Assembly (NCBI GenBank): GCA_964399235.1
Contig: CAYNQC010000002.1
Location: forward strand, 3,224 to 67,223
DNA: 64,000 bases
Direction of reading: 5' to 3'
Source of the DNA: an uncultured Candidatus Bathyarchaeia archaeon
Lineage (GTDB): Archaea > Thermoproteota > Bathyarchaeia > Bathyarchaeales > Bathycorpusculaceae
Part shown: positions 2,367 through 58,057 of the stretch, in pieces
How positions within the stretch are numbered: position 1 is the first letter of the stretch
Layout of the letters: the number at the start of each line of letters is the position of its first letter
Made by a program: the position numbers and the translations under genes
Notes under the pieces: generated by a model
Databases searched by the model: none
Told to the model about the DNA's origin: nothing
What the model saw: only the letters and a program-made list of their open reading frames with translations

Positions 2367-2746
2367 TATGGTATCCATAAATGGTAGGAGAACACCGGGA
2401 TTATCCAATCCGGCCACTCCTGTCTTGCAAACAGCACCAAACCTCTGATGGTGCGCGTGTCGGCCCCATCCCTGACCAATTCGGCGCGCGCCGCGTTCAT
2501 GCTTTTCCCGGTAGTGAACACATCATCAACAATAAGTAGTGTGCGAGCCTTTGGGGATTCGTGGCGCCTTAATTTAGCGGCCAGTCTGAGCCCGCCATTG
2601 GGTATTCCGATTACCCGATGAAACTTGAAAGCAGAGTGAATTATATAAGTGAAGGTCTCTAAGTCTTGGTCGGTTAGATCGTCACACTCTATTTTCCAAG
2701 TGAGCGTTTTGTCGGCGTGAGACTGAAAGACCTTCCGGTTAAACAC
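2366..2746 (-). CDS. phosphoribosyltransferase-fold protein (short, 126 aa)
   Basis: LLIVDDVFTTGKSM is a type I PRTase PRPP-binding loop; GTG start. Confidence 0.75.
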   Translation of the reverse strand: MFNRKVFQSHADKTLTWKIECDDLTDQDLETFTYIIHSAFKFHRVIGIPNGGLRLAAKLRRHESPKARTLLIVDDVFTTGKSMNAARAELVRDGADTRTIRGLVLFARQEWPDWIIPVFSYHLWIP

Positions 2747-2752
2747 AGAGGC

Positions 2753-3079
2753 TTACGGGCCAGAGGCTTCAGCATCCGGCACGATGTCATCCAGAGCTTG
2801 GGCTTGAGCAGTCAGGGCGGCCAGGGCGGCATCCGCTTCTGGAGTCAGAGCGATATTAGCCAGCGCTAGCTGTAGCGCATCAATCTTGGCCAGGATCTCA
2901 GCCTTGGCTTTGGTGAGTTGGTTATCGACCGAGACCAGGGTCGCGGCTAGTTCATTGAGTTGAGTCATGACATTCTCCACACGATTCGGCAAGTGCACCC
3001 ACTTGGATAAATCGCCATCCCCGACGGGCAGCACAATGATCGGGGTTTGCGTATCAATAGTAATCTTCATAGTATACAT
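2753..3079 (-). CDS. coiled-coil protein
   Basis: ATG at 3079 (MYTMKITID...) with AGGAG 7 nt upstream; Ala/Leu heptad-like C-terminal half. Confidence 0.55.
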   Translation of the reverse strand: MYTMKITIDTQTPIIVLPVGDGDLSKWVHLPNRVENVMTQLNELAATLVSVDNQLTKAKAEILAKIDALQLALANIALTPEADAALAALTAQAQALDDIVPDAEASGP

Positions 3080-3141
3080 CGTTGTACTCCTGGCGCCCCA
3101 GCGCCTAAACCTCGACAGTAAAGGCTCCAGGAATGCACACA

Positions 3142-3468
3142 TCAGTATTCAAACGTTAGCAGACTATCCCGGTATTGCTTCTCCAGAGACTGGCAGGCGC
3201 TGGTATAGGTAGCAAATTTGTCTAGGTTTTTGTGGATCAGGTCGGGACATGCCTTGAAGGTATGTCGATCTTTGGGAAGGTTCACCCGGGCGGCGATCGC
3301 GGCCAGGGCGGTATCCAGCACATGGTTGGTGATCTCTAAAGTCTCTCTGATCTCCATAGGCGTCTTACCATTGCAGAGCAGCTCCACAATTCTAAGTCCG
3401 ATAAGCTCCTTGGGGTTTGCGGTTGCCCAACCAGATTGGGCCTCTTCTAAAATTTTAAGGGTATCCAC
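3142..3468 (-). CDS. putative HTH DNA-binding protein
   Basis: GKTPMEIRETLEITNHVLDTALAAI looks like a helix-turn-helix. Confidence 0.45.
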   Translation of the reverse strand: MDTLKILEEAQSGWATANPKELIGLRIVELLCNGKTPMEIRETLEITNHVLDTALAAIAARVNLPKDRHTFKACPDLIHKNLDKFATYTSACQSLEKQYRDSLLTFEY

Positions 3469-3978: not shown

Positions 3979-4226
3979 CGCTTGCTCTCGAAGTCCTTGG
4001 GGACGTCTGGGTTAGGGGGATCTCCAAGCTCTTTATCGGCAAGGGCTCTGGCATCCTCGGCGGCTTTTCTGGTCTTCTCCAGCATATTGAGTGCGTAGTT
4101 GGAGCGTTCAGTTTCGGCTCGTGCCGCGTCATAATCTTTGCGGACATTGCGCGCCTTCTGAAATCCGATCGCGCCGCCCAATAGACCGATAATTCCAAGC
4201 AGTATGCCTATCAATCCAGTTGTCAT
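3975..4226 (-). CDS. N-terminal TM plus coiled-coil protein (i-spanin- or holin-associated-like)
   Basis: Start MTTGLIGILLGIIGLLGGAIGF (TM helix), ATGA overlap with upstream gene at 4223-4226; charged helical tail. Confidence 0.5.
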   Translation of the reverse strand: MTTGLIGILLGIIGLLGGAIGFQKARNVRKDYDAARAETERSNYALNMLEKTRKAAEDARALADKELGDPPNPDVPKDFESKR

Positions 4227-4453
4227 GACTCGCCCCCCGTGATTGGTACCATATTCCTGACAGCTTTTTTGATTACCCGGCGCCAGCACCGGTTGGCCTC
4301 AGAAACAGTCATTGTGCCATTGCCATACAGCCGCATGACGGAGTTGATGTCGTGCTGCAGGTAGGCCAGCATATCTGGGTCCTCTATTCGATATCCATGC
4401 TCGAACAATTGCTCATCCAGGGGCGGGACGCACGCACCAACACGAATCTGCAT
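4223..4453 (-). CDS. hypothetical protein
   Basis: 76-aa ORF in translationally coupled chain. Confidence 0.55.
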   Translation of the reverse strand: MQIRVGACVPPLDEQLFEHGYRIEDPDMLAYLQHDINSVMRLYGNGTMTVSEANRCWRRVIKKAVRNMVPITGGES

Positions 4454-4713
4454 CAGTTGAGCGACTCCTTGCGGTAGAGTATGGACATGACGCGATTGAA
4501 CAGTTCTTGAATGACTTCCAGAGCCGTCTCCCCCTCAAGTAGTCCGTCCTGCACCAACGCATCAACGTGCCCAATACGGGCCACCAGGAGATTAACAGCA
4601 TCCGGATCGGCCGAGCAAAACCCCCTGCTCTCAAACTGCTCAAGCACAGTTGCTGCCGGGTCCGAGAAGTCAATGTTGAAGCTTTCCTCATCGCTGGACA
4701 TGTTGACAATCAT
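4453..4713 (-). CDS. hypothetical acidic protein
   Basis: 86-aa ORF, ATGA overlap with upstream gene. Confidence 0.55.
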   Translation of the reverse strand: MIVNMSSDEESFNIDFSDPAATVLEQFESRGFCSADPDAVNLLVARIGHVDALVQDGLLEGETALEVIQELFNRVMSILYRKESLN

Positions 4714-17165: not shown

Positions 17166-17177
17166 GAGAGTCTTACG

Positions 17178-17319
17178 GGTAAGGATGGGCATGGCAAGCC
17201 GTGGCGGGGGCTGGGCGGGTCGGGTTAGGTAGGTTTGGGCGGGGCGTGGTGGGGCCGGGTAGTCCAAGGTGCGGGACGGTCTGGGATGGGTTGGCAAGGC
17301 TAGGCGAGGCGAGGGCTTT
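17178..17319 (+). repeat. (GGNNN)n pentamer array A1
   Basis: 28 pentamers in one register, 25 start with GG; ends 2 nt before ATG 17320. Confidence 0.9.
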
Positions 17320-17595
17320 ATGAGCGAACAAGTACAGATTTATTCGAGATCGGAGCTGACGGCCGAGGAAAAGTTGGCCCAAACAGTGAGTGCGCTTAGG
17401 CGCTTGGAGCGATGGGCACAGGCATATCCAGTGAGCGTGTTCCCGGAACCAGATATGGAGCGGGTCCATCAGGTCTTGAAGGATGCCGGCATGGGATTGG
17501 ATGGTGTTTCTGCGTATGTGATCAGGTACGTCCTGAGCGAGGTTCAGGATATCGTAAATGGCGGACTAAGAGGAATTGACGACGATGATGACTGA
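17320..17595 (+). CDS. hypothetical protein
   Basis: Start MSEQVQIY immediately after array A1. Confidence 0.6.
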   Translation: MSEQVQIYSRSELTAEEKLAQTVSALRRLERWAQAYPVSVFPEPDMERVHQVLKDAGMGLDGVSAYVIRYVLSEVQDIVNGGLRGIDDDDD

Positions 17596-17872
17596 AGACG
17601 AGATTCGTGCGGATGAGCGAGCGAACTGCATAGCGTTGATAGGTATGTTTGATGACTTGCCCGGTCCAATTCCTCCCCCTATCCACGCAATCATCAGTGC
17701 GAGCCCGGAAGCGGCAGAGATGTTCTCTAGGTCGCTAGTGCTGTTCACAAAAATAAAGGTGATCGCCATGTTGCGCGGGATCAACCCAGACGAGGAGCTA
17801 TCCGATACGGATAAGGCGATTCTGGTGAGTGACCTGGCGATGCACGACCCGAGGCGCGCGAGGAGTCATTGA
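17585..17872 (+). CDS. hypothetical protein
   Basis: First ATG (MMTEDE) in ORF 17576-17872; track start is TTG. Confidence 0.5.
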   Translation: MMTEDEIRADERANCIALIGMFDDLPGPIPPPIHAIISASPEAAEMFSRSLVLFTKIKVIAMLRGINPDEELSDTDKAILVSDLAMHDPRRARSH

Positions 17873-17873
17873 T

Positions 17874-18299
17874 ATGGATCTACAGATTCCGGTTGATGAG
17901 CATCCTGATGAGATGATTACCCCAGCAGAGGCCATGCTGATGATGATGGCAAACAAGTACACGGTGGGGCCGGACATGGACCAGACTACCGAGACCATCA
18001 CTTTTCTGGATGGCGCTGAGGCCACTATAACGGCCCACACCTTCATCTGGGATCTGCCCGGCAGGGCAGCCACCGAGACGTCTCAGCAGCTCCTGTCGGT
18101 GGCCTGGAACGTGATTAGCGAAGCATGGCCGCCCGGGTCTTATCTGAGGTGGCGGATGCGGCCGGTGTTTGAGGAGAAATACAACGAAGAGGATCAGTTG
18201 TGGATGTGCCGGCTGCGGATGCGAATAGGGGCATTCTGCCTGCCTTTTCTGGACAATGATTCTGACTCGGAAAGCTTACCGGAAAGATTGAATAGTTAA
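17874..18299 (+). CDS. hypothetical protein
   Basis: ATG 17874 with AGGAG 8 nt upstream. Confidence 0.6.
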   Translation: MDLQIPVDEHPDEMITPAEAMLMMMANKYTVGPDMDQTTETITFLDGAEATITAHTFIWDLPGRAATETSQQLLSVAWNVISEAWPPGSYLRWRMRPVFEEKYNEEDQLWMCRLRMRIGAFCLPFLDNDSDSESLPERLNS

Positions 18300-18300
18300 T

Positions 18301-18370
18301 GGAGTGGGGTGGTGCGCGAAGCCAAGGGCTGGCGAGGCATGGGATGGCGAGGCGTGGAAGGGCTGGGTTT
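18301..18370 (+). repeat. (GGNNN)n pentamer array A2
   Basis: 14 in-phase pentamers ggagt ggggt ggtgc ... ggctg ggttt. Confidence 0.85.
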
Positions 18371-18403
18371 TTATTTGTTTTCAATAACTTAGAGGTTACT
18401 ATC

Positions 18404-18631
18404 ATGGCTAAAAAGGCGGAACGAGTAATTACGAACGACGGGATGGAGAGTCTCGGCGGGGTCTCAAATGATGCGGAAGTGGAGTATGCGGCGGCAATAC
18501 CCTATGTAGTGGAAGTCACCATCCAGGGCGATGCCCCTCTACTCTTTCATCGCTGGAGTTGTGATGCGGTGGAGGCGAAAAGCAAGGCTGCTAAAAACAG
18601 CGCTGTCAAAAAATCCGATAACGTCGAGAGT
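18404..18631 (+). CDS. exon 1 of intron-split conserved phage gene (76 codons)
   Basis: ORF ends with TAA directly after the U that wobble-pairs with the intron guide sequence. Confidence 0.7.
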
Positions 18632-18926
18632 TAAACTATGGCTCTCGTAAAACTTTCCCTGATCAATGGGGAATAGCCCAACTACATAATACCGAGTCAT
18701 AGAGGCTCAATGTTATAGTAAGTGGCCAACCCTCAACAAGCAGGTGGAAGACATGATTTCCGATTAGGGGTTGTGCCTCGACCGCCAGCAGTTGCAGAGA
18801 CTAAGTGGGAAAGCTCTCACCGGCACCAAAAGTTAGTGAGGGAAGCGATAGTCCGACCTGTGCAGGAATGCGCAGAGATTGGCAGAAATGACCAATCCAC
18901 CCCGAGCCAGGGGGAGTAACAACGTG
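18632..18926 (+). ncRNA. ORF-less group I intron (3' end 18914/18924/18926 not resolved)
   Basis: P1 cgagagU.G with ggctctcg (18640-47); P-like gcaGGTGGaaga; Q-like CCGCCagcag; R gcAGAGACUAAgu (18795-804); S gAUAGUCCGACC (18847-58); P2, P8, P9, P9.1 hairpins. Confidence 0.8.
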
Positions 18927-19340
18927 TACGTTTATAGATGTGCCAATGGGAACCTCGGTCTTCCAGGTGAGTATTGCCGGATGAGTCTGATTGGTGCTGC
19001 CAAGTACCGTCAGGATCCCCGCAGCCCTCGCAAGTCGGCGATGGACCTATTCAAGGCTGGGGTTATCAGCTTGACCGAGCTGGCCGATCTGGGCCAGAAC
19101 GATTGGGACTACCTGGACCGCCGTCGGGTGATGGTGCAACGCTCGGGTATTACTCGGGTACGTCCAGCGCTGGAGACTGGGTGGAAGGCGACGTTTAAGT
19201 TACAAATTCAATTACCGGAATACATTAACGCATCTTTCCTGCGGTCGGTGATTCAGGATGGTGGAAAGTTGATCGGGCTGGCTGATTTTAGACCCAGCTA
19301 CGGACGGTATTCTATCATCAATTTCAGTGAGTTAGGTTGA
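18927..19340 (+). CDS. exon 2 of intron-split gene (137 codons)
   Basis: No ATG or SD of its own (track start is TTG); joining to exon 1 gives ...KKSDNVES/YVYRCANGNLGLPGEY..., 213 aa. Confidence 0.65.
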   Translation, partial: YVYRCANGNLGLPGEYCRMSLIGAAKYRQDPRSPRKSAMDLFKAGVISLTELADLGQNDWDYLDRRRVMVQRSGITRVRPALETGWKATFKLQIQLPEYINASFLRSVIQDGGKLIGLADFRPSYGRYSIINFSELG

Positions 19341-19352
19341 TTTAAGTTAAAG

Positions 19353-20151
19353 CGAGGCATGGGTTGGCAGGCGGGTCGATGGGGTGGAAAGGATTGGCTA
19401 GGCGGGGCAGGGCGCGGCAGGGTATGGCGGGGTCAGGCTATCTTCGGATGGGTTTGGCAGGGCTGGGCTGTGGGTGGCAAGGCGAGGGGTGGTAAGGCCG
19501 GGGTTTTCTCGGATGTCTTCATTGAGGGCATCCCGGAGAGTCAAGGCTGGGGAGGGTCCGCCGGGGTGTTGGCATGGGGTGGCTTGGCCCGGTGGGGGCG
19601 GGCGTGGCGAGGTATGGTTTGGCATGGGGTGGGGTGGCGAGGCTTGGTGTGGGCTTTCTCAAGCTCCTTGCTGTGCAGGGGGCTTCGGAAAAGGAGTGGC
19701 TAGGCGGGGGAAGGCGAGGCGGGGCTTGGCGGGGAGTGCGCAGGCTAGGTTGGGTCTAGGTGCGGTGGGGTTTGGCTTGGGCTTTTCAAGCACCTCCACC
19801 CGGGGGTGCTTCTGAGGCGGTCTGGTCGGGTGGTGCTGGGCATGGTACGGCTTGTTCCGGGCAGGCTCGGCTTGGGAAGGCAAGGTCCGGCGCGGCTTGG
19901 TGGGGGTAGGCGCGGGTCGGCGGGGTTGGGGCAGGCAAGGGGTGGCGAGGGTTTTCTCGGACATCTTCGATGAGGGTGTCCCGGAAAGCTCGGGCGGGGC
20001 CAGGCATGGCCTGGGTGCGGGGAGCGCTGGATTGGCCAGGCGAGGGGTGGTTGGCAATGGAATGGTCCGGCACTGGCGTGGCAAGCGGGGGCGCGGCGCG
20101 GCATGGTGAGGTTGGGGCAGGCGGGGGCTGGGTAGGCATGGCATGGGTTTT
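19353..20151 (+). repeat. (GGNNN)n array A3, about 0.8 kb, with four embedded hairpin elements
   Basis: Pentamer runs interrupted by hairpins at about 19504-40, 19661-85, 19788-811 and 19952-88; ends at ATG 20152. Confidence 0.9.
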
Positions 20152-20403
20152 ATGAGAAAGAAATTACAGTTTCCAGTTCCTCCTAAGTACGATCTGACGA
20201 CAGACCCACAGGACGGCAAACGACCTTACCGGTTTTGCGTTGATGGTATCCCTATGGTGGTCTGGTTGGGCGCCAAATTGGATGATCCCCTGGTCCGCTT
20301 GATGTTGGCCGGCGAGGAGCACCGAGGGAAGAGAGTAACCTTTGACGAGCCCCGGCAGGGTTGGCCAAAGCTTGATTCAATACCTGAGTATCATGGCAAG
20401 TGA
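20152..20403 (+). CDS. hypothetical protein
   Basis: Start MRKKLQ directly after gggttttATG. Confidence 0.55.
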   Translation: MRKKLQFPVPPKYDLTTDPQDGKRPYRFCVDGIPMVVWLGAKLDDPLVRLMLAGEEHRGKRVTFDEPRQGWPKLDSIPEYHGK

Positions 20404-20467
20404 CAGGCTAGGCGAGGCAGGGGGAGGTCGGGGCTGGTTTGGGACGGCGTGGCTGGGTGAGGTTTTT
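20404..20467 (+). repeat. (GGNNN)n pentamer array A4
   Basis: 12 pentamers between stop 20403 and ATG 20468. Confidence 0.85.
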
Positions 20468-20644
20468 ATGCTAGTGAAGGACTTTATTAAGTTGCTGGAA
20501 CAGTGCCCACAGGAGTCTGTGGTTGTGCTGGAGGATCGTGATGGCGACCAGGTTTCTGATATAGCTGTCACACTCAAAGGGCCGGCTGAGTACATCAAAA
20601 GCGATGGGCCGGTGGTGCTTATCCATATAGATTTTTCCTGGTGA
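20468..20644 (+). CDS. hypothetical small protein (58 aa)
   Basis: MLVKDFIKLLEQ... follows gaggtttttATG. Confidence 0.5.
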   Translation: MLVKDFIKLLEQCPQESVVVLEDRDGDQVSDIAVTLKGPAEYIKSDGPVVLIHIDFSW

Positions 20645-20844
20645 GGCCCGGCAAGGGATGGCAAGGGGTGGCTGGGCAAGGTTCGCCGAGGAGTGGCGCG
20701 GGCCGGGATGGGCGGGCGTGGGCGGGCGGGGTAGGGCATGCTAAGGTGGGGCCGGGATAGGCCGGGTGGGGCCTGGCAGGGCCGGGGATGGTCGGGACCG
20801 GCAGGGCCGGGGATGGGTGGGTGAGGTATGGTTTGGCATGGTTT
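20645..20844 (+). repeat. (GGNNN)n pentamer array A5
   Basis: 40 pentamers in one register, 38 start with GG. Confidence 0.9.
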
Positions 20845-20865
20845 TTATTTGAGGGGGAGCAAGCA

Positions 20866-21132
20866 ATGACGGACGCGATCGGGATGTACATGAAAGATGA
20901 CCGACGCCCGCAGGTTGATATCGCAGGGGGCGATCGCCGCTGTGCGAGTTGTCGGTATTGGTCTGCGACGCTATCCCGCGCTGTGGGCTCCAGGGCTGTC
21001 CAGGCCGTTTGTTTAGCGCCGGACGGGCCACACTTTGAGACGTGGTGCTTTCCAACTCAATGGTGCCCTTCCTGGGCTCCTGGTGAGCCCGTGGACACGC
21101 CGACTTTTGAGGCAATTGTGTTTCCAGGTTGA
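20866..21132 (+). CDS. Cys/Trp-rich hypothetical protein
   Basis: ATG 20866 with GGGGGAG SD. Confidence 0.55.
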   Translation: MTDAIGMYMKDDRRPQVDIAGGDRRCASCRYWSATLSRAVGSRAVQAVCLAPDGPHFETWCFPTQWCPSWAPGEPVDTPTFEAIVFPG

Positions 21133-21315
21133 CGGTTTGGTGAGGCAAGGTTGGGCTGGGGTAGGTCCGGTATGGCCAGGCTGGGATGGGCAAGGTGAGG
21201 GAAGGAAAGGCCAGGCCAGGTTGGGCAGGGGAGGGAGAGGCTCGGGTTGGTATGGTAGGGGGAGGCGTCGGCAAGGTCAGGATGGGGCGGGCTCGGGTAG
21301 GTGTGGCGAGGTTTT
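21133..21315 (+). repeat. (GGNNN)n pentamer array A6
   Basis: 36 in-phase NGGNN pentamers from stop 21132 to ATG 21316. Confidence 0.9.
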
Positions 21316-21690
21316 ATGAATTACGAATCGGTTGATCCGGGTTTCAAGAGTCGGGCGGATTTTTGGGTCGGTATCGGTCCTGGGGCCGAGTGGTTGGGGT
21401 CCGTATGCCACGATGGCGGGCAATGGCAATACCCGAGTATGGGCTTGCTGCCGCTGACCAGTGAACAGGATTACCGGCAACGGGTTACAACTATCCTCCA
21501 GAACGATCCGCTGGCGAGTATGCCCTCGGATGGCTGGCCATGGCCTTGGCCAAGCTCACAGGACACAGATTTTGTATATTCCTGGCATGACGGATGCGTA
21601 CAACTCGAAAAGCGTAATGATTGGCCAGATATGTCCGACAGGCGTTCCGCTGTTTTGGGGCCGAAGTCGGGGATTTATGTTGTTGATTGA
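21316..21690 (+). CDS. hypothetical Trp-rich protein
   Basis: Start MNYESVD after gaggttttATG. Confidence 0.6.
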   Translation: MNYESVDPGFKSRADFWVGIGPGAEWLGSVCHDGGQWQYPSMGLLPLTSEQDYRQRVTTILQNDPLASMPSDGWPWPWPSSQDTDFVYSWHDGCVQLEKRNDWPDMSDRRSAVLGPKSGIYVVD

Positions 21691-21725
21691 GCTACGGTTT
21701 GTGGAGACAGGCTCTAGCCCGGCTC

Positions 21726-22025
21726 GGCTGGGCAGAGAAAGGGGTGGCGTGGTGTGGCTGGCTGGGGTCCGGCAGGGCTCGGCGGGCGTTGGCTTGGTAG
21801 TCAGAGGCTGGCAGTGGTAATGACTGGCTTGGCACGGCGTGGCAGGGCCAGGTGGGGACGGGCAAGGGGTGGTACGGCGGGCTCCGGCAAGGCGGGGTCA
21901 GGCAGGGATGGGCGAGGCGCGGACGGGTATGGTGCGGGGGTGTAGGGTCAGCAGAGGTTAGGTGTGGCCTGGTCGGGACGGGTATTGGCTGGCAAGGTCT
22001 GGGCTGGCAAGGTCTGGTATGGCAA
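21726..22025 (+). repeat. (GGNNN)n pentamer array A7
   Basis: 60 pentamers in one register, 50 start with GG; contains direct 15-mer gctggcaaggtctgg twice. Confidence 0.9.
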
Positions 22026-30004: not shown

Positions 30005-30406
30005 ATGGGTAGACGCTCCCTTGACCTGGCTGGTAAACACTTCCATCGCTGGGTGGTTCTGGAACAGGCGTCCGGCTTACCGGGTTGGTGGCTCTGCTGC
30101 TGTAAGTGTGGGACTGTGAAGACGGTGCTGGGGAGTTCCCTGGTGTATGGCAACAGCAAATCCTGTGGGTGCTTGCAGAAAGAGCTGCAGCGTGTACGGG
30201 CTACTGAGCCTACCAAGCGCAGTCATCTGCTGACCTATCAGGGTAAGACCCAGTCATTGGCGCGCTGGTCGCGTGAGTATAACCTGGCTGCCGACACCAT
30301 CCGCAATCGCCTGAATCGGGGCTGGGATCTGGAGAAGGCCTTGAGCACTCCCTCGCGGGCTGCGCGCTCTCCTGATCTGGTGACGGTCTTCGAGGTTATG
30401 CCGTGA
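30005..30406 (+). CDS. zinc-ribbon plus HTH DNA-binding protein upstream of terminase
   Basis: WWLCCCKCGTVKTV...SKSCGC ribbon; C-terminal QSLARWSREYNLAADTIRNRLNRGWDLEKAL HTH-like. Confidence 0.6.
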   Translation: MGRRSLDLAGKHFHRWVVLEQASGLPGWWLCCCKCGTVKTVLGSSLVYGNSKSCGCLQKELQRVRATEPTKRSHLLTYQGKTQSLARWSREYNLAADTIRNRLNRGWDLEKALSTPSRAARSPDLVTVFEVMP

Positions 30407-33400
30407 TTCCTAACCTGGGTGCCTTGCCCCTCTGTGAGCTGGCCCCGGCGCATCATGCGATCCTGATCGAGCAGGAGCTGTCTCGGCGGGCTGAGAAGAA
30501 AATCCTGGAGCGTGACTTCGCGGCCTTCGCCAAAGCGGCCTGGCACGTAGTAGCCCCGGATCGGGAGCTGGTTTGGAACTGGCACCACGATCTGATCTGC
30601 AACTACCTGGAAGCATTCGCCCTGCGCTACATCCGCAACCTGCAGATCAACATCCCCCCGCGCTGCACCAAGTCCATCCTGTGCGCGGTCCTCTACCCGG
30701 TATGGGTATGGATCAAGCAGCCCAACCATCAGTTCCTGACCTTGAGCTTCAAGGAAGACCTCTCAACCCGCGATGCCGTGGCCTCGAGGAACCTTATGGC
30801 CTCAGAGTGGTTTCAGCGCAGGTGGAGCGATCGCTTCAAGTTCAGCGGGGATACCAACGCCAAGACCAGATACCAAAACGATCATTCCGGGCATCGGATC
30901 TCCTCGGGTATGACCTCTGGCGTGTTGGGTGACGGTGGTGATTGCCTTCCTGGGGAGACCAGGGTGATGACGGAGGTAGGGGAGATTCGTATCGACACCC
31001 TCACCCAGTTGATAGACAAGCCGAGGGTGTTATCCTACAATCATCTGACCGAACAACTCGAATATCGCCCTGTGGTGGCGGCCCGGGAGCTTCCTGCAGA
31101 TGAACTTATCGAATTTAAAACATCCAGCGGTAATACGCTCAGAACTACCCGGCGGCATCGTCTGTACGTCCATAAATCCGGTTACCGGCCAGCGAAGAAT
31201 ATCTGCCTTGGTGAAAGATTCCTCGAACTCGTGCCCGGTATGCCATGGGTCCAAACTCAAGGAGAGCCAGTTCTGCAGCCCCTGTTATCACCAGATGAAG
31301 CGCCAGGAAGTGGAGACGGTGTGCTCGTTATGTGGGACCCCGGTAATCCAGGAACTCTCGGCATTCAGGAAAAAAGTCGAGCGGGATGGGCAGACCGAAT
31401 TCTATTGCTGTGTCGAGCATTCGCGGGCGCATCACGCAGTCAAGAATCGCCGGAAGTGCGCGGTTTGCGGATCCAGGGTAGCGAAGAAAACCAGGAAATA
31501 CTGCTCGACAGCCTGCCGGGAGTCAGCCAGAAAGCCCGCCTTGGAGATTGCCTGCGAAACCTGTGGGAAGCGATTTCATCCGGCGAACTCCAAGGTTCGG
31601 TATTGCTCGCTGGACTGTTCGGCGCTGGCCCACAGCCGGCGTATGCGGGGAGAAGGGAATACCAGATACCAGGATGGGAGATGCGTCCAGAGTGGGTTCC
31701 GTGCGATGCGGCCGGTGATTATGGAGCGGGATGGGCGGGCTTGTGTGGCTTGCAGGACGCAGGAAAACTTGATCGTGCATCACATGGACCGGGACCGGAA
31801 GAACAATCGGGTAGAGAATCTGGTCGTTCTGTGTCAGCCCTGCCACGTCAGGAGGCATCACTGCGCACCTCCGGCGTTCGAGTGGTTGCCAGGGTACGTC
31901 ATGGGGGCGAGCCAGTCTATGACCTCCAGGTTGCAGGAAACAGCAACTTCTTTGCTAACGGAATTCTGTCCCACAACAGCATAATAATCGACGATCCGCA
32001 CGACCCAGAGGGCGCGCAGTCGGATGCTCAGCGGGCGACCACCCTGCGGTCCTACGACGGTCAGCTCATCACGCGCTTGAACGATCGGCGCTCGGGCGGG
32101 ATCCTGATCTTCATGCAGCGGCTGCACGACCACGATCTGTGCGGGCATGTGCTGGCCAGGGAGGGGCAGGCTGATCAGGGCGGGCGCTGGCATCGCCTGG
32201 TAGTACCCATGCGCTACGACCCAGAGCTCAGCCTGTCGACTTACCCTGAAGCCGGCAAGGACCCGCGCACCAAGCCTGGGGAGCTGTTGGATCCGATCCG
32301 TTTCCCAAGAGGGGAAGTAGACTTGCTGGAGACGACCCTGGGGCCTTACAACGTCTCGGGCCAGCACCAGCAGTCCCCATCCCCCCCGGGCGGAGGGATC
32401 CTGAAAACGGCCTGGTGGCAGATGTGGCCCAAGGAGCGCCCGCTGCCCAAATGCAGGGAAATCTTCGCCTCCCTGGATACCGCCTTCACTGAGCGCCATC
32501 ACAAGGAAATGGAGCAGACAGGTCATGCGGCGCGCTCGGCCTGCACGGTCTGGGGGGTGTTCGAGGAGGACAATGGGGCGCCTGGGGTGATGCTGATTGG
32601 GTCCTGGGCTGACTGGATTGATTGGCCGGCCCTGGTGAAAAAGGCCAGGGAGACCTACGATCGCCACGACCCTGACTACATCCTGATCGAGAAAAAGGCC
32701 TCTGGCATATCCCTGCTGCAGGACCTGAAGTACCAGGGCATCCCTGTCGTCGAGTACACGCCGGATGGTGACAAGATTGCCCGCGCCTACGCCTGTCAGT
32801 CCATCCTGTCCTCGGGCTTTGTGTGGTATCCGGATCGTGCCTGGGCGCACGAGGTGGTGGCGGAATGCGCTGCTTTCCCGCGTGGCTCACTGAAGGACTA
32901 TCCCGATACCTGCGTGACTCCGGATACGGAAATCTACTGCGCCGAGGGCGTGAAGCCGATTCGTGACATAGTCCCTGGAGATTGGGTGCTTACTCATGCG
33001 GGTAGATTCAGAAGGGTCACCAGCGTGATGACCAGAACCAGCGACCATATCCACCGCTTCAAGGCTAAGTGCCTGGATGAAATATCGATAACCGGGAACC
33101 ATCCAATGTTTATCCAGAGGGCTGATGGGGTGGGATGGATACCGGTTGCCGAGGTCAAGCCAAGAGAGAAGTTTCAGTTCTATAGAAAAGGCAAGGTAGT
33201 AAGCTGTCCCGTTTACTTGAAGTCGGCCGATTTTGATATGGCTGTGCTGCCGGAAATACGCGGGGCTGACGGGGCTTGGTCAGTGCTTGTTGGTGCCTTC
33301 GCCGAGGAAGAATTGACTGGCTTGCGTGCCGGACGGAAGAAGTGTGAGAAAAAATTTAGTCTGAATTATGACCAGGGATGGTTGTTTGGGTTGTTTCTTG

Positions 33401-34179
33401 CAGAGGGGTGCGTAACCAAGAGCCGGGGTATCCCCAGTAAAATTGTCATCGCCTGTAATGAGGGCGCCATGCTGAAGGCGCAGAGCATCATCAGCAGCAC
33501 TTTTGGGGTTGATGTCAAGATTCGGAATGAAGGGGTTTGCCATAAGCTGGTGATTTGCAGAAAAGCGCTCGTGCCGGTATTTGAAACCTTCGGTCACCTC
33601 GCTGAAAATAAATATATCCCCCGGTGGGTCATGGAGGCCCCCATATCCTTCGTAAAAGGGTTCGTCGAGGGTTACGTAACCGGTGATGGAACTATCGATC
33701 ATGACGCTATACGATGCTCGTCCGCATCGAGATCTCTATTGCTGCAGCTTAGGTTATTGCTGATCAGATTAGGGAAATCGGCAAGCCTTTGCATGGAAAA
33801 GCCGGCCGGGGTGCGCGTCATCAACGGCGCCATGTGTGAGTGTTTGCCGGCGTACTCGATTAATTGGGTGACCAGGGACGATACGACGACGATAGGAAGA
33901 CCGCTGGAGGGCGGCGGTATGGGCTACTGGGTCGAGAGAAATGACAGGATCGAGGGGCCTGTTGAAGTCATGAACCTGTCCGTCGATGAAGACGAATCTT
34001 ACGTAACGACCGGCGGGACTGTGCATAACTGCACGCAGGCGTGGCTGCGAATCAAGAAATCAGGGCTGCTGCGCCGAAAAGTCATCCCCTTCAGGGACCC
34101 TGGACTTGATGACGAGGAGGATGAGCCGGCATTTGTGAAACCCAAGAAATACCGCAGGGTAGTAGGTATTTACGGCTAG
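30403..34179 (+). CDS. terL: terminase large subunit precursor containing two inteins (540 aa after splicing)
   Basis: GTG start in GTGA overlap; extein motifs ...GVLGDGGD/SIIIDDPHD (Walker B-like) and ...KDYPDT/CTQAWL; QRLHDHDL. Confidence 0.85.
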   Translation: MIPNLGALPLCELAPAHHAILIEQELSRRAEKKILERDFAAFAKAAWHVVAPDRELVWNWHHDLICNYLEAFALRYIRNLQINIPPRCTKSILCAVLYPVWVWIKQPNHQFLTLSFKEDLSTRDAVASRNLMASEWFQRRWSDRFKFSGDTNAKTRYQNDHSGHRISSGMTSGVLGDGGDCLPGETRVMTEVGEIRIDTLTQLIDKPRVLSYNHLTEQLEYRPVVAARELPADELIEFKTSSGNTLRTTRRHRLYVHKSGYRPAKNICLGERFLELVPGMPWVQTQGEPVLQPLLSPDEAPGSGDGVLVMWDPGNPGTLGIQEKSRAGWADRILLLCRAFAGASRSQESPEVRGLRIQGSEENQEILLDSLPGVSQKARLGDCLRNLWEAISSGELQGSVLLAGLFGAGPQPAYAGRREYQIPGWEMRPEWVPCDAAGDYGAGWAGLCGLQDAGKLDRASHGPGPEEQSGRESGRSVSALPRQEASLRTSGVRVVARVRHGGEPVYDLQVAGNSNFFANGILSHNSIIIDDPHDPEGAQSDAQRATTLRSYDGQLITRLNDRRSGGILIFMQRLHDHDLCGHVLAREGQADQGGRWHRLVVPMRYDPELSLSTYPEAGKDPRTKPGELLDPIRFPRGEVDLLETTLGPYNVSGQHQQSPSPPGGGILKTAWWQMWPKERPLPKCREIFASLDTAFTERHHKEMEQTGHAARSACTVWGVFEEDNGAPGVMLIGSWADWIDWPALVKKARETYDRHDPDYILIEKKASGISLLQDLKYQGIPVVEYTPDGDKIARAYACQSILSSGFVWYPDRAWAHEVVAECAAFPRGSLKDYPDTCVTPDTEIYCAEGVKPIRDIVPGDWVLTHAGRFRRVTSVMTRTSDHIHRFKAKCLDEISITGNHPMFIQRADGVGWIPVAEVKPREKFQFYRKGKVVSCPVYLKSADFDMAVLPEIRGADGAWSVLVGAFAEEELTGLRAGRKKCEKKFSLNYDQGWLFGLFLAEGCVTKSRGIPSKIVIACNEGAMLKAQSIISSTFGVDVKIRNEGVCHKLVICRKALVPVFETFGHLAENKYIPRWVMEAPISFVKGFVEGYVTGDGTIDHDAIRCSSASRSLLLQLRLLLIRLGKSASLCMEKPAGVRVINGAMCECLPAYSINWVTRDDTTTIGRPLEGGGMGYWVERNDRIEGPVEVMNLSVDEDESYVTTGGTVHNCTQAWLRIKKSGLLRRKVIPFRDPGLDDEEDEPAFVKPKKYRRVVGIYG
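30943..31977 (+). mobile_element. intein 1 (345 codons) at the Walker B-like motif
   Basis: Starts CLPGETRV, block B GNTLRTTRRHRLYV, ends PVYDLQVAGNSNFFANGILSHN followed by S. Confidence 0.8.
31100..31984 (+). CDS. HNH endonuclease ORF in +1 frame nested within intein 1
   Basis: Five CxxC-type pairs, then CVACRTQENLIVHHMDRDRKNNRVENLVVLCQPCHVRRH; GGGAG 10 nt upstream of ATG 31100; stop 7 nt past the intein end. Confidence 0.6.
   Translation: MNLSNLKHPAVIRSELPGGIVCTSINPVTGQRRISALVKDSSNSCPVCHGSKLKESQFCSPCYHQMKRQEVETVCSLCGTPVIQELSAFRKKVERDGQTEFYCCVEHSRAHHAVKNRRKCAVCGSRVAKKTRKYCSTACRESARKPALEIACETCGKRFHPANSKVRYCSLDCSALAHSRRMRGEGNTRYQDGRCVQSGFRAMRPVIMERDGRACVACRTQENLIVHHMDRDRKNNRVENLVVLCQPCHVRRHHCAPPAFEWLPGYVMGASQSMTSRLQETATSLLTEFCPTTA
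32911..34029 (+). mobile_element. intein 2 (373 codons) with LAGLIDADG homing endonuclease domain
   Basis: Starts CVTPDTEIY, block B ITGNHPMF, LAGLIDADG motifs WLFGLFLAEGCV and FVEGYVTGDGTI, ends SYVTTGGTVHN followed by C. Confidence 0.85.
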
Positions 34180-46836: not shown

Positions 46837-46845
46837 GGAGAGGTG

Positions 46846-49800
46846 ATGGCTAATTGGTGGGAAACTCCGCAGCAGCCGGTTCCACTGCCGTCCGCTCAGC
46901 CGGATCTCGGCTCAATGGATTTGGCGCAACTATACAGAGAAGCTTATGGGTTCCGTGATGTGCCCCCTTCTGCTGCGCCCCTCCCCCCTGTCGCGAGCAC
47001 CGAACCAGTACCACCCCAGCCCGGGCTGCTCTCCGATGTAGGTAATCTGCTCAAGCGGGGCTATGCCAGCACCGCCGAGGGCGTCAACTGGCTGGCCGGA
47101 CAAACCCCGGGGCTCAACAATATTCCGGCCTTGGACTGGCAGGGTAACGCTGATTACTGGAAGCAGGTCGCCGATCAGACCACCCAGAAGCTCTCGCTCG
47201 CCCAGCAGGCTGCCGGTGAAAAGAAGTTCTTCAATGAAGATTACACCCCCGGGGAAGCCTGGAAAGACCCTCGTTCCTACCTGGGTGGTGCTGTCGAGTC
47301 GATTCCTGGCACTGTGGTCGGCATGGCTGCTGGTGCGCCGATCGCCGGCATTGTCAATAAGGTCGGGATGGGGCTGCTTACCCGTGGCGCTACGGCGGCG
47401 GCCGAGAAGGCCCTGGCGGGTGGGGCTGAGGCAGCGGCCGTCAAGGCGGCGGGACAGGTCACTAATAAGGCGGCTGGTCGGGTCGCGATGGGGGCTGGCG
47501 CTGTAGGCTATGGTGCTGGTGAAGGAGTTACGGCGGCGGCTACGGATGGGGCGCAGGCGCGTGATCTGGTTATGGGTCGGTCCCCCGAGGAGATGGCTGC
47601 TTCCCCGCTGTATCAGCAGTTGCTGGCAAAAGGACTACCCCCTGACCAGGCCCAGCAGCAGGTAGCCGATACGGTTGCCGAGCAGGTAGCGACTCGGGCC
47701 GGGATCTCGGTGGCCGTCATGGGCGCACCTATGGGCGCCGTCTTTGGTAAGTGGTTCCACTCTGCCGGCGGTGAAAAAATCACCAAATCTCTGCTGGGTG
47801 AGCTGGCAGTGGGTACGCTCGGAGAGGGCGCGCAGGAGTTCCCACAATCTGGTGCTGAGCAGTTTTTTCAGAACCAGGCCATCAAGCAGCATGTCGATCC
47901 CAAGCAGAAGCTCTGGGAAGGGGTGCTTAATGCATCGGTGGCGGGCTCTGTCTCGGGGGCGGTCATGGGTGGCGCCATGGGTGGCTTCCAGGGTATTGGG
48001 GCCAAGGCCGGCGCCGCCAATGCAAGAATCAATGAAGAGCTAAGCAAGGCTGCTTTTGCGAACAATCTGCAATTTGCGACGGCTGATGATCTGCATGCTG
48101 CCATGGCGCACCTGGATACGCTCGGTCAGCAGAAGGATCTGCCTAAAGAGTCAATTGATCGGGTCGCTCAGGCCCGCAGCACCATCCAGGCCGAGATGGC
48201 CCTCAGAGCCACTCCTGAGACGCTGGCACAGCCTCTGCGTGACGACCAGGGCAACGTACAGCCCAGAGCTGAATCCGCCTTCCTGGGGCTCTCAGAGCGT
48301 CCACACGGGCTTAGCGATGACCAGCTAGCCGAAGCCGCCAATCGTCCGCTAGGTGAAGATGCGCCGGCTGAATGGGGGGCCGCCCAGGATCGCTACAAAG
48401 CCGAGATCGCCCATCGGACTGCCCTCAGTAATACCGTCAAGCACTTTACCGATAACCCGGGGGCGGTTGGTGGTGTCAGCTCCAGAATACTAGATATAGT
48501 GTCTGGCAGGCCGCTTACTCCCAAAGGGTATGGGTCTACTGACTTCAACCTGGCCACCCTGTCAGATGATCTGTTGACTCGCTATCGGATGGCGGGTGAA
48601 GTGCTGTTGCGTGACCATCCTGAGACACTTGGCAAGAAGCAAACATCCAAGTTGACCGAGGCGGTAGACCAGCTCCATCAAGAGGCCGATCGCCGCGCTG
48701 CCGGCCAGCAGGGCAACCCCGAGGAGATCAAGGTTAATGAGCAGGTCACCAGCCTCGCTTCCCAGCCTGCTAAGAAATTCAGTGATACCGTTAAAACGCT
48801 CTCTGCAGAGGCGCTCACGCGCGCTGCGAAGATTATTGAGTCACGCCTCCAGCTTGAGCCCGCGCTGGCTCCAAAACTGGAAGAGATCAACGCCAGAGTC
48901 GGGGTCCTACAGGCCCAACAGGCGAGCGTTCAACAAGCAAGTGTCGCTACGCCTGCGCCTGAGAGCGTACAGGGAGCTGCACCGGTCGTTGAGGCTGTCG
49001 CTCCTGCAACCCCTGCCCCCGCGCCTGCGGCGGCTGTCCCGGAGTCTGTCGTGGCCCCGGCGCCCAGCGCCCAGGCAGCCCCAGCGGTAACTGCGCCAGC
49101 ACCATCAGCACCATCAGCGCCATCAGCGCTCGCCCTGCCTGCCCCGGCCACGCCGGTTGCAGTGGAGAGGGTAGCCGCCGGCCTGCCGGTGATCTACTCC
49201 AATAAGGACCGGATCAAAGAGGTCAAGGCCAACCCCAACTACAACGTGATCGCCCTCCCGGATGGGCGCGCCAAGGTGGTTGGTGTGCTGCATCCAAAGA
49301 CTCAACAGTGGATCGGATTTCCCCCTAATGCACCCGTACCAGCCGCGCCTAAAGCCCTACCCGCTCCCGCGCCGACCACTCCCGCTGCTCAACCCGTGGA
49401 GGCAGCTCAGCCGGCTGCGGAAGTTGCCCCGAAGGGTGGTGCTGCAAGTGCTATTCCTAGCGCTCCATCGGTCGAGCCGCCCATCGAGGCGCCAAGCGTA
49501 CCTGTCACTAAACCCAAAAAGGTAACCTCCAATGCCACTAGCATACGTCAAGATCAGAGATTCCCTAGCCAAAGGGGCCAAGAAGGACAGTCCGGCGTAC
49601 AACAAGGCTCAGAGCCGGGCGGCGGCAATTTACGTGTCCAAGGGAAAAAGCAAGTCGCAGCGAAGCAAGTTGGCGAAACAGTTACACGACAAGTAGTTTC
49701 AACGAAGGGCAAATTTGGCCTTCCTAAGTCGTCTCCAGATGGTGTCGCCGCAAACGCCAAGCTGCTTCCCCACGGCGCGAACCGACAAGCCACTCTCGTA

Positions 49801-52800
49801 AAGGGCTTTGATAGTCTCAATAGGAATCGGCAGCGTGCGGTGCTCGGCCATGTGATCAGCGTGCTTCAAGATGACGAGGTTGCACGGTCTGTTGTCAAGA
49901 CCATCCCCGTTGATGTGATGGACATGCTCACTGGAAAGGATGGGTCTTCCGAGGAGGTTTTGCATAACCCATCGATGCTCCGTAATGCTCTTATTGTCCC
50001 GCTTGATGCGTCTATACCTGCTGGTGTGAGCAGATTTATCGAGTCTATAGCCGGTAGGGCGGCATCGGCCAGCACAAGTCCTGCTGCAGTAAAAGCCAGC
50101 TTGACGAACAAGACGGCCGGCAGCGAACTTTCTGGTAAAAACGGTCCCACAAAAGTCGCAAGCAAGGGTAATGGTAGCCAAGGGGTGGGCTCCGAAAGCA
50201 GTAAGAAGCAAGAGAGTATACGCGGACAACGCCAGTCAAAACAAGCAGCCAAGTCGGTCACCCCGCTGCAAAGCACGGCCACGATGGCTAGGCATGCAGC
50301 CTACAAGACGCTTGGCATCAACTGGAATAAGACCCACGAGGTCGTCAAGCAAGATCAAGACTGGGCAGTCGTCGAGAAACCTACAGTTGCCAAAGAAGAG
50401 GGACCGCTGGCTGCCCCCAATCTTGACCTGTTTGCAGAGCCAAATCCCGACCAGTTCGATCTGTTTTCTGACGCTGAGCCCACCAACGACCCCAAGCTGC
50501 AGAAGGCCCAGGATGGGGCTAGGAAGGCGGTGGAGGCACTGCGGACTCAGCGAGGCTCGATACTTGGGAATGCGATCGCCAAGGACTTCGAGGATCACAG
50601 CATCACGTCATTGATAGGCAAGAAGATCCGGTCAGCCAAGGATTTGGCGGTGCTGGCGCAGGTCTATCGCAATCCCAGCTTTGAGACCTTCAGGTACTTC
50701 TTCACCAAAGGTAATGCTGTGGTAGCCCAAACTGCCACCACCGCTCGGCTGCCAGGCTGTACCCCAATCTTCACGGGCCACGATACGACGTGGGGAGACG
50801 GACTGGAGCAGCTCAAGCGGATGATGGCCGAGTCAGGTGCTGATGGGTATTACATCCTCCACAACCACCCCTCTGGGTCGCCAGAGCCTTCCGCAGCCGA
50901 TGTTCAGGTGACCAAGGGTCTGGCCGCCATGCTGCCCGGGTTTAAGGGTCATGTCGTTATCGATCAGACCAAGTATGGATTGATGCGCGCGAATGGCAGT
51001 CAGTTGGTGGCCGACCTTCCAGAGAAGGCACTTCAGGACGATACCCGCTATAACGTCGACCGCCAGTACACACGGCCGCATTTTGCGCTCGGTGCAAGGA
51101 TTAATTCGTCAGCAGATGTCGCGGCGACCGCCAGTGCTCTGCGGTATAACTCCGGCAGTGGGTACTTCCAATTGGTTGGGACCAACAGACATGGTGTGCG
51201 TGGCATCATGGAGGTCCCCATAGAGGCGCTCAAGGGCTACCGCCAAACAAAAACCGGAAGCTTGCGGATAGTTGCGGAGGTGAGGAGATTCGCCAGAACT
51301 ACTGGCAGTGTTGACATATTCGCTATCAACCTCCCCGGAAACATCGGTCGCATGAGCGTGCTGGGGGCGATCAAGTCAGGCCTGTTTAAAGATGTCCATT
51401 TTGCCGGGGACACCAACACCATCAGGGAAACGACGATAGTTGGTACGACGCCGGGGGCCGAAATGGGCAGAATTGGCTCTCGCGGGATCGGGGCTTCAGA
51501 AAGCCAAGCATCCCCTTATGTGGAAACCAAACTGGCCGAGTCTGAGCCGATCGTCCCCAAGGGGATGGCCGGTCTGCAAAATGCTGCCAGCATCAGCGCC
51601 ATCAACCATCTCGCCAAGGCCAGGAAGTTTGACAGCAACCTAGAGCTGAAGGATGTCATCGAGGATCGAGTAACTGCGGCGGCGGCCAGGCTGAAGGACT
51701 TCAACCTGCGGGCCAAGACCCTTGGGCAGCGCGAGAAGAGCTACCTGTCGACCCAGTTATACAACGAGATGCGCCAGGGTCTGCTGAGCGGGAGTGATGC
51801 GCTGGGATGGTATGAGGGAAAGGTGCATGGGGCCTTTGAATACCTGGCGCTCAAGCATCCCGAACTGAAGTTTCTTGACAAAGACCATGGCGGTATGGAG
51901 CAGGTTCGCAGGAATCGCTTTGCCTACACCTACATCCTGGCGATGACCTCCAACGGGACCAAGGTCGAGAAGAACGCCGAAAACGCCCAGAGACTCTACA
52001 CCAGATTCCTAGAGAATGGCCATTTGCCAACGACAGGATTTGGTAGCGGTACGGCCGCCACGAACATCGAAAAATCGGCAGAACTGTTCAATGAGCTGGC
52101 TGATCGATTTGGGATAGACCGGTTTGGTCGGATGATGATGACCCAGTTCAAGGTGATCGATCTGAGCAACGCCGGTATCAAGACCAGCGGTGAGACTTCC
52201 GATCAGGACGTGCTTGGCGCGTTGGTGTTGGGGCCGAAGCTGGGCAATGGGTTCTTTGCCAATCTGAACGGAATCTTCGATCAGCTCACCATGGATCGCT
52301 GGTTCATGCGTACCTGGGGGCGGCTGATCGGGCACCTGCGCGAGGTTTATCCGGAAAGGGTTAATACTCATCGCGCAAGTGTGCGAGATATCATAAATAA
52401 CTTAACAAATGAAGTCAGGGATGTTATAGTTGATCATCTGACCCGTCCGGGCTCCCGTCAGGCAACCAAGGATAAGGCCAAGCTACTGACGGCGGCGATG
52501 GCGCCCGGCGCGACCGATGAGGATATCGATGCCTTGGCTTGGATGGTCAAGGGGCTGACGGTTAGTGATCAGTTCAGGGACATACTAAATCCGGCCGGAA
52601 ATGGGCAGGGCAGTGAGCTGCGGCTGGCGACCAACTCCCTGACGACCAATCTGATGGGTGATATCGAGGCGCCCACTAGGACCCAGCGGCCCCAGATCCG
52701 CGAGGTGATGACCGAGGCCATCCGCCTATTGGGGGAGCATACCGGGGTCAATCTGACCGCCGCCGACGCACAGGCCCTGCTCTGGTATCCAGAGAAGCTT

Positions 52801-57852: not shown

Positions 57853-57884
57853 ACACCACAGACTTATGAACACCACGCCGGTCA

Positions 57885-57994
57885 TGACCAAACCCAACCG
57901 TACCATGCCGTGCCCGACCTATCCATTCCTGGCCTCTGCACGCCTCGGCCGTCCCTGCCATGCCCGGCCGTCCCGATCCAAGCCTTACCTGGCC
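57885..57994 (-). repeat. (GGNNN)n pentamer array A8, G-rich strand is the minus strand
   Basis: Plus strand reads 22 in-phase NNNCC pentamers (tgacc aaacc caacc gtacc atgcc ...), 20 end in CC. Confidence 0.85.
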
Positions 57995-58057
57995 ACGTCG
58001 CGCACCACAAAAGGATGCATGGAATGAGCCATGTTTGTTTGGAATTAGCAAAAAGGT

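Follow-up and report, generated by a model that had tools for sequence, protein, structure and literature searches.

The classical group I introns of phages, exemplified by those in td, nrdB and nrdD of T4, belong to subgroup IA2, are self-splicing, lie in phase 0 or near it, meet a stop codon shortly downstream of the 5' splice site, are inserted in the most conserved part of their gene and sometimes lack an open reading frame (ORF). Phage introns without an ORF, such as that of cyanophage psbA, can be mobilised by free-standing endonucleases. The element described here occupies positions 18632-18926 on the plus strand of the window, i.e., the whole 64,000-nt stretch of contig CAYNQC010000002.1 that was analysed. 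Judged from sequence comparison, it is very probably an ORF-less group I intron, predicted to be self-splicing, that separates codons 76 and 77 of vipr in a phage. As an element it is of an ordinary kind, and the interest lies in its host gene, vipr, which encodes the RNA-guided, DNA-binding Cas7-like RAMP of a VIPR system. As far as we could find, it is the first intron seen in a VIPR locus.

VIPR was first described in 2026, in two preprints, and is proposed to be an ancestor of the CRISPR RAMPs. A minimal RAMP, Vipr forms polymers along vrRNAs, which consist of 9-16 YNNGG repeats and a tail and sit in long intergenic regions flanking vipr (2026 preprints). On these GGY/NN repeat RNAs, the Vipr protein of SUSP1 silences matching DNA, which Vipr binds through a 1-nt-skip code, and residues D177, W178 and R179 of its G-loop hold the GGY bases (2026 preprints). 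VIPR systems are also reported to attack one another. Introns are mentioned in neither of the two preprints.

By direct reading, the first ORF of the locus starts with the ATG at 18405 and its final codons, AAC GTC GAG AGT (N V E S), run up to U18631. The TAA at 18632-34, which an earlier note on this DNA had placed right after a U, is in frame and is the first codon of the intron. A second reading frame opens inside the gap and runs from the TAC at 18927 on to 19340. Once joined (...NVES/YVYR...), the two exons give a 213-aa product with one continuous match to PHROG 4652 over aa 36-206. A search among 5.8 billion proteins recovered 6754 relatives of this spliced product. The top full-length relatives are mostly 200-215 aa long, with 58-69% identity and 84-100% coverage, and just one match exceeds 90% identity, namely the same phage's exon-2 ORF. 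In homologue alignments of 21 and 95 sequences the block reads KK(T/S)D(N/D)xES-YVYR with zero gap across the junction, and about 270 uninterrupted homologues show ...DN(V/I/L)ES-YVYR... without an insertion or deletion. Because the homologues are gap-free across ES-YVYR, the 5' splice site is placed after U18631 and the 3' splice site after G18926. The alignment to uninterrupted homologues that the earlier note had proposed thus fixes the junction it preferred and rules out the two alternative junctions for which it had called the 3' splice site ambiguous.

Residues D72, E75, S76, Y77, V78, Y79 and R80 are invariant or nearly so in the homologues, and the window protein retains 36 of the 36 residues that are invariant among the 95 sequences, on both sides of the intron. 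Few blocks of this highly conserved protein are conserved as strongly as the insertion site. Such a site is typical of phage introns, and the earlier view of the host as an unusual one does not hold. The continuous PHROG match, the gap-free homologues and the covariation described below all argue for what the earlier note had proposed at the outset, that the region is one gene interrupted by an ORF-less group I intron.

The host gene, in which no function had been recognised, is vipr. A profile of the 95 homologues matches PDB entry 36pp (the SUSP1 Vipr protein) as its only PDB match, with E=2.5e-11. The match is limited to the C-terminal 76 residues, aa 126-201 (GVGDFRPTYGRF against GVGDWRPRFGRF), where D196-F197-R198 of the window G-loop aligns with D177-W178-R179 of SUSP1 (D-aromatic-R). 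The AlphaFold2 model of the spliced protein (predicted local distance difference test, pLDDT, 89.9; predicted template modelling score, pTM, 0.80) has a RAMP fold with a single RNA recognition motif (RRM) and a G-loop, and its top Foldseek matches are Cas7 of type VII and Csm3 (probability 1.00, template modelling score, TM, of about 0.5). The gene is surrounded by at least 12 plus-strand NNGGY tracts of 9-61 units, at 17176-22023, whose copy spacings are multiples of 5 and which often extend right to the next start codon (...GGTTTTTATG). NNGGY tracts occur in 182 of 198 vipr loci of our own sample versus 0 of 90 control loci, which are unrelated intron loci. The tracts around the gene are this phage's vrRNAs. 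The annotation of the region is corrected, in that two "hypothetical" ORFs and a 295-nt gap make up one vipr gene. No Pfam or PHROG match was found for the small ORFs neighbouring vipr, and Rfam searches gave no hammerhead in the window and no match to another family in its vrRNA region.

The window's intron is the only one found among about 270 vipr loci. In IMG/VR, 193 of 198 vipr loci consist of one uninterrupted match, as do 73 of 80 in species-representative genomes; the remaining loci are explained by contig ends, frameshifts, a tandem duplicate and truncated fragments, and none is an intron case. Among the apparently split loci (L numbers are our locus handles), a frameshift accounts for L246 and contig ends for L199 and L274; L220 holds a pair of vipr genes, and in L249 vipr is truncated at its 5' end and preceded by unrelated DNA. 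The two genes of L220 (1471-2037 and 3753-4331) are vipr paralogues that lie about 1.7 kb apart on a single viral contig. In L249 (about 4136-4558), vipr lacks its first 70 codons and homology begins 5 codons before the intron site of the window; nothing intron-like was seen in the DNA upstream of it. A pattern combining the P9.1 loop, the tail and the YVYR codons, which describes the same intron at the same vipr site, gave 0 matches in IMG/VR and 0 in the JGI metagenomes, and there is no second copy of the intron within the window. At 100% identity, the intron is also present on three Logan contigs, which belong to the same phage. The clade of vipr to which the genome loci L293-L372 belong (45-66% identity) occurs in assemblies of many phyla, including Phycisphaerales and other Planctomycetota, Proteobacteria, Actinobacteria, Bacillota, Acidobacteriota, Cyanobacteria and Patescibacteria.

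The core helices of the intron follow one another in the canonical order P3-P4-P5-P6-P7-P3'-P8-P7', the P3/P7 pseudoknot is present, and the minimum free energy (MFE) of the sequence has a z-score of -4.3 against dinucleotide shuffles. For covariation, the window intron and five relatives (L154, L133, L107, L089 and L093) were aligned with MAFFT blind to structure, and pairs were counted on this alignment with P7 entered as a pseudoknot. In the proposed structure 97.4% of the cells of the 6-intron alignment form standard pairs and 25 of the 38 pairs show compensatory changes on both sides; none of 500 shuffles matched the observed pairing, and controls with slid partners were 38-44% paired.

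Individual elements (Table 1) refine the picture given by the earlier note. The 7-bp P1 with its wobble U stands: U18631.G18641 sits at the 5' splice site, and L154, L133 and the intron of Brochothrix phage A9 likewise have a 6-7-bp P1 ending in U.G. The GGUGG/CCGCC pairing (18743-47/18782-86), previously taken for P4, is P6, and the real P4, in the register G18668-71/18730-33, has compensatory changes in 2 of 4 pairs with 100% paired. The intron has no P2; the hairpin once assigned to it (18654-73) is incompatible with P3 and P4, and related introns are without P2. P5 and its extension are drawn from the fold of the window itself, while at the position of P6 the relatives possess short P6 hairpins or homing-endonuclease ORFs. 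The R element (GCAGAGACUAAG, 18794-805) and the S element (GAUAGUCC, 18847-54) were correctly recognised, and the P7 they form is invariant in 6 of 6 aligned introns. The pair G18799-C18853, next to the bulged A18798, would be the guanosine-binding site, which we take to be so by analogy with Tetrahymena; the pair and the bulge are constant in all 6 aligned introns. P8, P9 and P9.1 lie where they had been placed before, and for P9.1 shuffled partners are 57% paired, versus the observed value given in Table 1. P3' directly adjoins P8, leaving no space for P7.1/P7.2, the absence of which excludes subgroup IA, typical of T4-like and SPO1-like phages. The omega-G18926 comes immediately before the TAC of Y77, and the tail GUAACA(A/G)N3G, with which the intron ends, is also found in L110, L106, L091, L129 and phage A9.

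Table 1. Positions in the window of the vipr exons, the probable group I intron with its predicted structural elements, and the surrounding vrRNA tracts.
Feature	Position	Strand	Description and support
vipr exon 1	18405-18631	+	aa 1-76, ends ...KKSDNVES; ORF; aligns with the N-terminal third of uninterrupted homologues
Probable ORF-less group I intron	18632-18926	+	295 nt, phase 0, between the S76 and Y77 codons; Rfam, homologue alignment, covariation
vipr exon 2	18927-19340	+	aa 77-213, YVYRCANG..., G-loop GLADFRPSYGRY; profile matches SUSP1 Vipr at aa 126-201
P1	18625-18647	+	exon 18625-31 (CGAGAGU) pairs with internal guide 18641-47 (GCUCUCG); direct reading and Rfam alignment
P3, 5' strand	18653-18659	+	CUUUCCC; partner 18807-18813; 6 of 7 pairs compensatory, 100% of cells pair
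P4 enclosing P5 and a long P5 extension hairpin	18668-18733	+	P4 18668-71/18730-33; P5 18676-78/18724-26
P6 with extension	18740-18789	+	GCAGGUGG...CCGCCAGC; after the P4 3' strand and before J6/7-P7; conserved base GC/GC
P7, 5' to 3' strand span	18797-18854	+	G18797 and 18799-803 with 18849-54; A18798 bulged
P3, 3' strand	18807-13	+	inside the P7 span
P8	18814-20/18836-42	+	6 of 7 pairs compensatory
P9	18858-18875	+	7 bp, GGAA (GNRA) loop; 28 lineage members, 99.4% paired, 20 distinct strands
P9.1	18878-18896	+	5 bp around the conserved loop CAGAAAUGA; 28 lineage members, 98.6% paired, 22 distinct stems
P9.2 and conserved 3' tail	18900-18926	+	CCCC/GGGG; tail GAGUAACAACGUG; ends in omega-G18926
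vrRNA-like NNGGY tract	17176-17315	+	28 units; between recT and the next small gene
vrRNA-like NNGGY tract	18299-18368	+	about 14 units; directly upstream of vipr
vrRNA-like NNGGY array	19355-20147	+	downstream of vipr; two pairs of conserved tails, e.g. 19500-19543, 19951-19993
Further NNGGY tracts	20404-463, 20638-842, 21132-312, 21719-22023	+	alternate with small ORFs

Several observations weigh against this assignment. In the Rfam search that the earlier note had suggested, the whole of RF00028 (model positions 1-253) aligns to 18622-18875 with E=0.0063 and the R and S elements have high posterior probability, which speaks for the intron, but the score of 21.3 bits is far under the gathering score of 50. 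Moreover, the match appeared in the 1-kb search and was absent from those with 5 kb and 64 kb, and nothing in the whole window reached the gathering threshold. The P5 and P6 extensions and P9.2 draw their support from the window sequence and from no other, and P10 is weak, with 2 bp beside the splice site and an offset UAAAC/GUUUA pairing. The four known copies of the intron are 100% identical, and so they give no within-lineage evidence of selection on the window copy. Finally, the earlier statement that the downstream ORF has neither an ATG nor a Shine-Dalgarno (SD) sequence is half true: an in-frame GTG (18924-26) takes the place of the ATG and follows the SD-like GGGGGAG (18910-16), and exon 2 alone could in principle be translated. 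Both motifs, however, belong to the conserved P9.2/3' tail of the intron. As to the Rfam score, RF00028 at its gathering threshold misses every related intron tested, including that of phage A9, so that the low score of the window reflects the coverage of the model and not the absence of the fold. The Rfam score by itself would not settle the identity of the intron.

The analysis shows where the intron begins and ends, its core fold, that the host protein is continuous and conserved, and the VIPR context; catalysis, timing and any regulatory or protective role are inferred. By the established group I pathway, the primary transcript would fold into P1 and P3-P9.2, with no P2, and the exon end would pair with the internal guide in P1. 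Free guanosine bound at the P7 pair G18799-C18853 would then attack after U18631, after which omega-G18926 would take the same site and the released exon 1 would attack after G18926. The predicted ligation, ...GAG AGU/UAC GUU... (...GTCGAGAGT/TACGTTTAT...), would yield the mRNA for the 213-aa Vipr. On unspliced RNA, translation would stop at the UAA with which the intron begins and give a 76-aa product.

The evidence was also set against explanations that dispense with splicing. If the resemblance to an intron were due to chance, and the gap ordinary intergenic DNA separating two small genes unrelated to each other, an Rfam score under the threshold would be in keeping with it, but this reading is effectively refuted by the uninterrupted homologues that cross the junction, by covariation that beats all shuffles and by a 3' domain kept in 28 sequences of the lineage. 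It is extremely unlikely that vipr is a gene split without splicing, made of the 76-aa piece and a 138-aa piece translated from GTG 18924, with a dead intron remnant or an unrelated structure as the spacer. Such an arrangement could draw on the in-frame GTG, which sits 7 nt after GGGGGAG, and on the annotators of phage A9, who started gp128 at the equivalent TTG. However, the SD-like run and the NUG are the conserved P9.2/tail of the lineage and are sequestered in P9.2 in the fold, and the A9 annotators were misled by that TTG. In addition, all core elements are intact and identical to those of relatives that still bear homing-endonuclease genes, and 0 of about 266 intact homologues are split at this position. 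In the AlphaFold2 model the break would come where a short helix (aa 74-77) ends, separating the strand at 34-42 and the N-terminal helices (to aa 77) from the strands and helices from aa 86 on.

A further alternative is that vipr has been inactivated by an inserted intron that no longer splices efficiently, leaving a pseudogene or a strongly down-regulated gene. The lack of a homing endonuclease, the weak P10, the lack of any other vipr with an intron and the identity of the intron copies would all fit, and we still regard inactivation as very unlikely, given that both exons keep all 36 family-invariant residues, that at least 12 vrRNA tracts, which need Vipr, are maintained around the gene, and that the P7, J8/7 and P3 sequences are the consensus of the lineage.

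The relatives of the window intron make up a sizeable lineage of group I introns in phages, which goes undetected by the Rfam model at its threshold. In IMG/VR, the R...S pattern in its exact form in the window had 0 matches, whereas a loose version of it gave 90 loci. Not one of these encodes vipr, and about 45 of them are linked to the window intron by nhmmer. From J1/3 to the 3' tail the lineage has the same architecture as the window intron: a short P1 ending in U.G, no P2, a J1/3 of (A/U)UAAA that runs directly into a 7-bp P3, the blocks CUGAUCAAUGGGRAA (J3/4-P4), CAACAAGCAGG (P4'-P6), GCAGUUGCAGAGACUAAGUG (J6/7-P7-J7/3) and GCGAUAGUCCGA (J8/7-P7'), a P9 with a GNRA loop, the P9.1 loop CAGAAAUGA, a variable P9.2 and the common tail, with stems that covary. 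The window intron differs from the lineage by its long P5 and P6 extensions. Like the window intron, L154, L133, L107 and L093 have no ORF, whereas L110, L129, L091, L120 and L106 contain HNH-like or other ORFs, the HNH-like motifs of L110 and L129 being read from the translation. In several members, L110 and L129 among them, the flank translates as coding up to the R element, which places the ORF in the P6 position; in L089 the ORF is in P9.2. Some of the ORFs at these two positions, P6 and P9.2, are homing-endonuclease ORFs. The lineage introns interrupt genes other than vipr, and several of their flanking exons look like capsid genes in the translations read. In L106 and L107 the lineage intron is followed, after a few hundred bases, by a second group I intron that does exceed the Rfam gathering score (L106, 6359-6591, 75 bits; L107, 5654-5890, 53 bits), and both pairs look like several introns within one gene region.

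How the intron reached vipr can be considered from its surroundings. No credible internal ORF was found in the intron; its sole ORF is a 65-aa GTG frame across the catalytic core (P6-P9.2). Ten neighbouring ORFs were scanned with Pfam and PHROG, and no endonuclease domain was found except that of a RecE-like exonuclease, which together with RecT is encoded by the two genes upstream of vipr; no endonuclease gene was found within about 1.5 kb of the intron. Since the P1 exon sequences vary between lineage members, the intron probably came to vipr by ectopic insertion and not by homing from another vipr.

A further proposal concerns what the intron might do for the phage. By splitting the DNA of the near-invariant ES/YVYR block, it might remove the target of a rival VIPR or of a homing endonuclease, with splicing restoring the protein. 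We consider this proposal unlikely, and the evidence for and against it is as follows. The published 1-nt-skip rule was applied to all NNGGY tracts of the fetched loci. By this rule, the coding sequence of vipr is a predicted target of five independent vrRNAs from other loci, all of them skipping the bases at codon position 3, and together they account for 10 distinct 8-unit words versus a shuffled mean of 0.25. Two of the five span S76/Y77, namely those of L263 (aa 74-82) and L188 (aa 69-77), and two others aim at the G-loop block; for junction-spanning footprints, 2 8-unit matches were observed versus 0 in 100 shuffles. The vrRNA of L263 (2464-2508), just upstream of its own vipr (2548-3192), matches DNA coding for ES/YVWRN. 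About 12 rival vipr loci match it at 17-18 of 18 positions, and the L263 vipr itself encodes the same peptide with AGT (Ser) and AGG (Arg) and matches at only 13 of 18, so that it is predicted to escape its own vrRNA through these codons. VIPR-versus-VIPR targeting is also predicted for L213 (2778-2840) and L283 (minus strand, about 9478).

Against such a shield stands the junction of the window, which already uses the escape codons AGT and AGA, and among the tracts of the fetched loci no vrRNA was found that matches its intronless form. Moreover, introns and vrRNAs are both expected to favour conserved sequence, and conservation alone could explain their coincidence. Self-protection from the window's own vrRNAs was considered as well and rejected, as these match vipr no more than expected by chance. 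If true, the shield would tie self-splicing introns to escape from RNA-guided DNA targeting.

Other features of the window include a terminase large subunit at 30403-34179 on the plus strand (1258 aa), with two inserted regions carrying intein-type domains, one with Intein_splicing (about aa 202-525) and the other with Hint_2 (from aa 836) and a LAGLIDADG domain (1083-1135). These insertions are read as two inteins. With the inteins and the putative intron, the phage would have self-splicing elements at both the protein level and the RNA level, the intron adding a third class of self-processing element beside the two terminase inteins. At 46843-57852 on the plus strand lies a gene for a 3669-aa polyvalent protein with ADP-ribosyltransferase, RadC-like JAB and LPD38 domains, and a lone NNGGY tract is found on the minus strand at 57872-57996, far from vipr.

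BLAST of 4 kb against annotated phages gave no match, and the window intron, which differs from those in td, nrdB and nrdD by being without the P7.1/P7.2 that define IA, showed no BLAST similarity to T4. Its best match in an annotated phage is the ribonucleotide reductase intron between gp127 and gp128 of Brochothrix phage A9 (Herelleviridae), with 77% identity over 75 nt. The two introns share the whole 3' domain, i.e., the S element, the P9 GNRA loop, the P9.1 loop CAGAAAUGA and P9.2, as well as a short P1 ending in U.G; the A9 tail, GUAACAAAUUG, ends in omega-G, and GUAACAAN3G is common to both. In contrast, the 5' half of the A9 intron (J3/4-P4 AAUUGCGGGAA) is unlike that of the window (CUGAUCAAUGGGGAA), and it has additional hairpins between P3' and P8 that the window intron lacks. 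In A9 (locus L292) the annotated TTG start of gp128 (2575-2577) is the last three bases of the intron, and a single ribonucleotide reductase gene probably has gp127 and gp128 as its exons. The host gene in A9 is a metabolic enzyme, whereas that in the window is vipr. Introns are reportedly found in capsid and tail genes of Cluster J mycobacteriophages, a precedent beyond the enzymes of nucleotide metabolism in different phages and genes. Within VIPR, a parallel is offered by the hammerhead ribozymes that are interspersed in some vrRNA arrays, where they process the vrRNAs (bioRxiv 10.64898/2026.04.26.720920). Both they and the putative intron represent self-processing RNA in a VIPR locus, but the predicted ribozyme of the window instead interrupts the protein gene.

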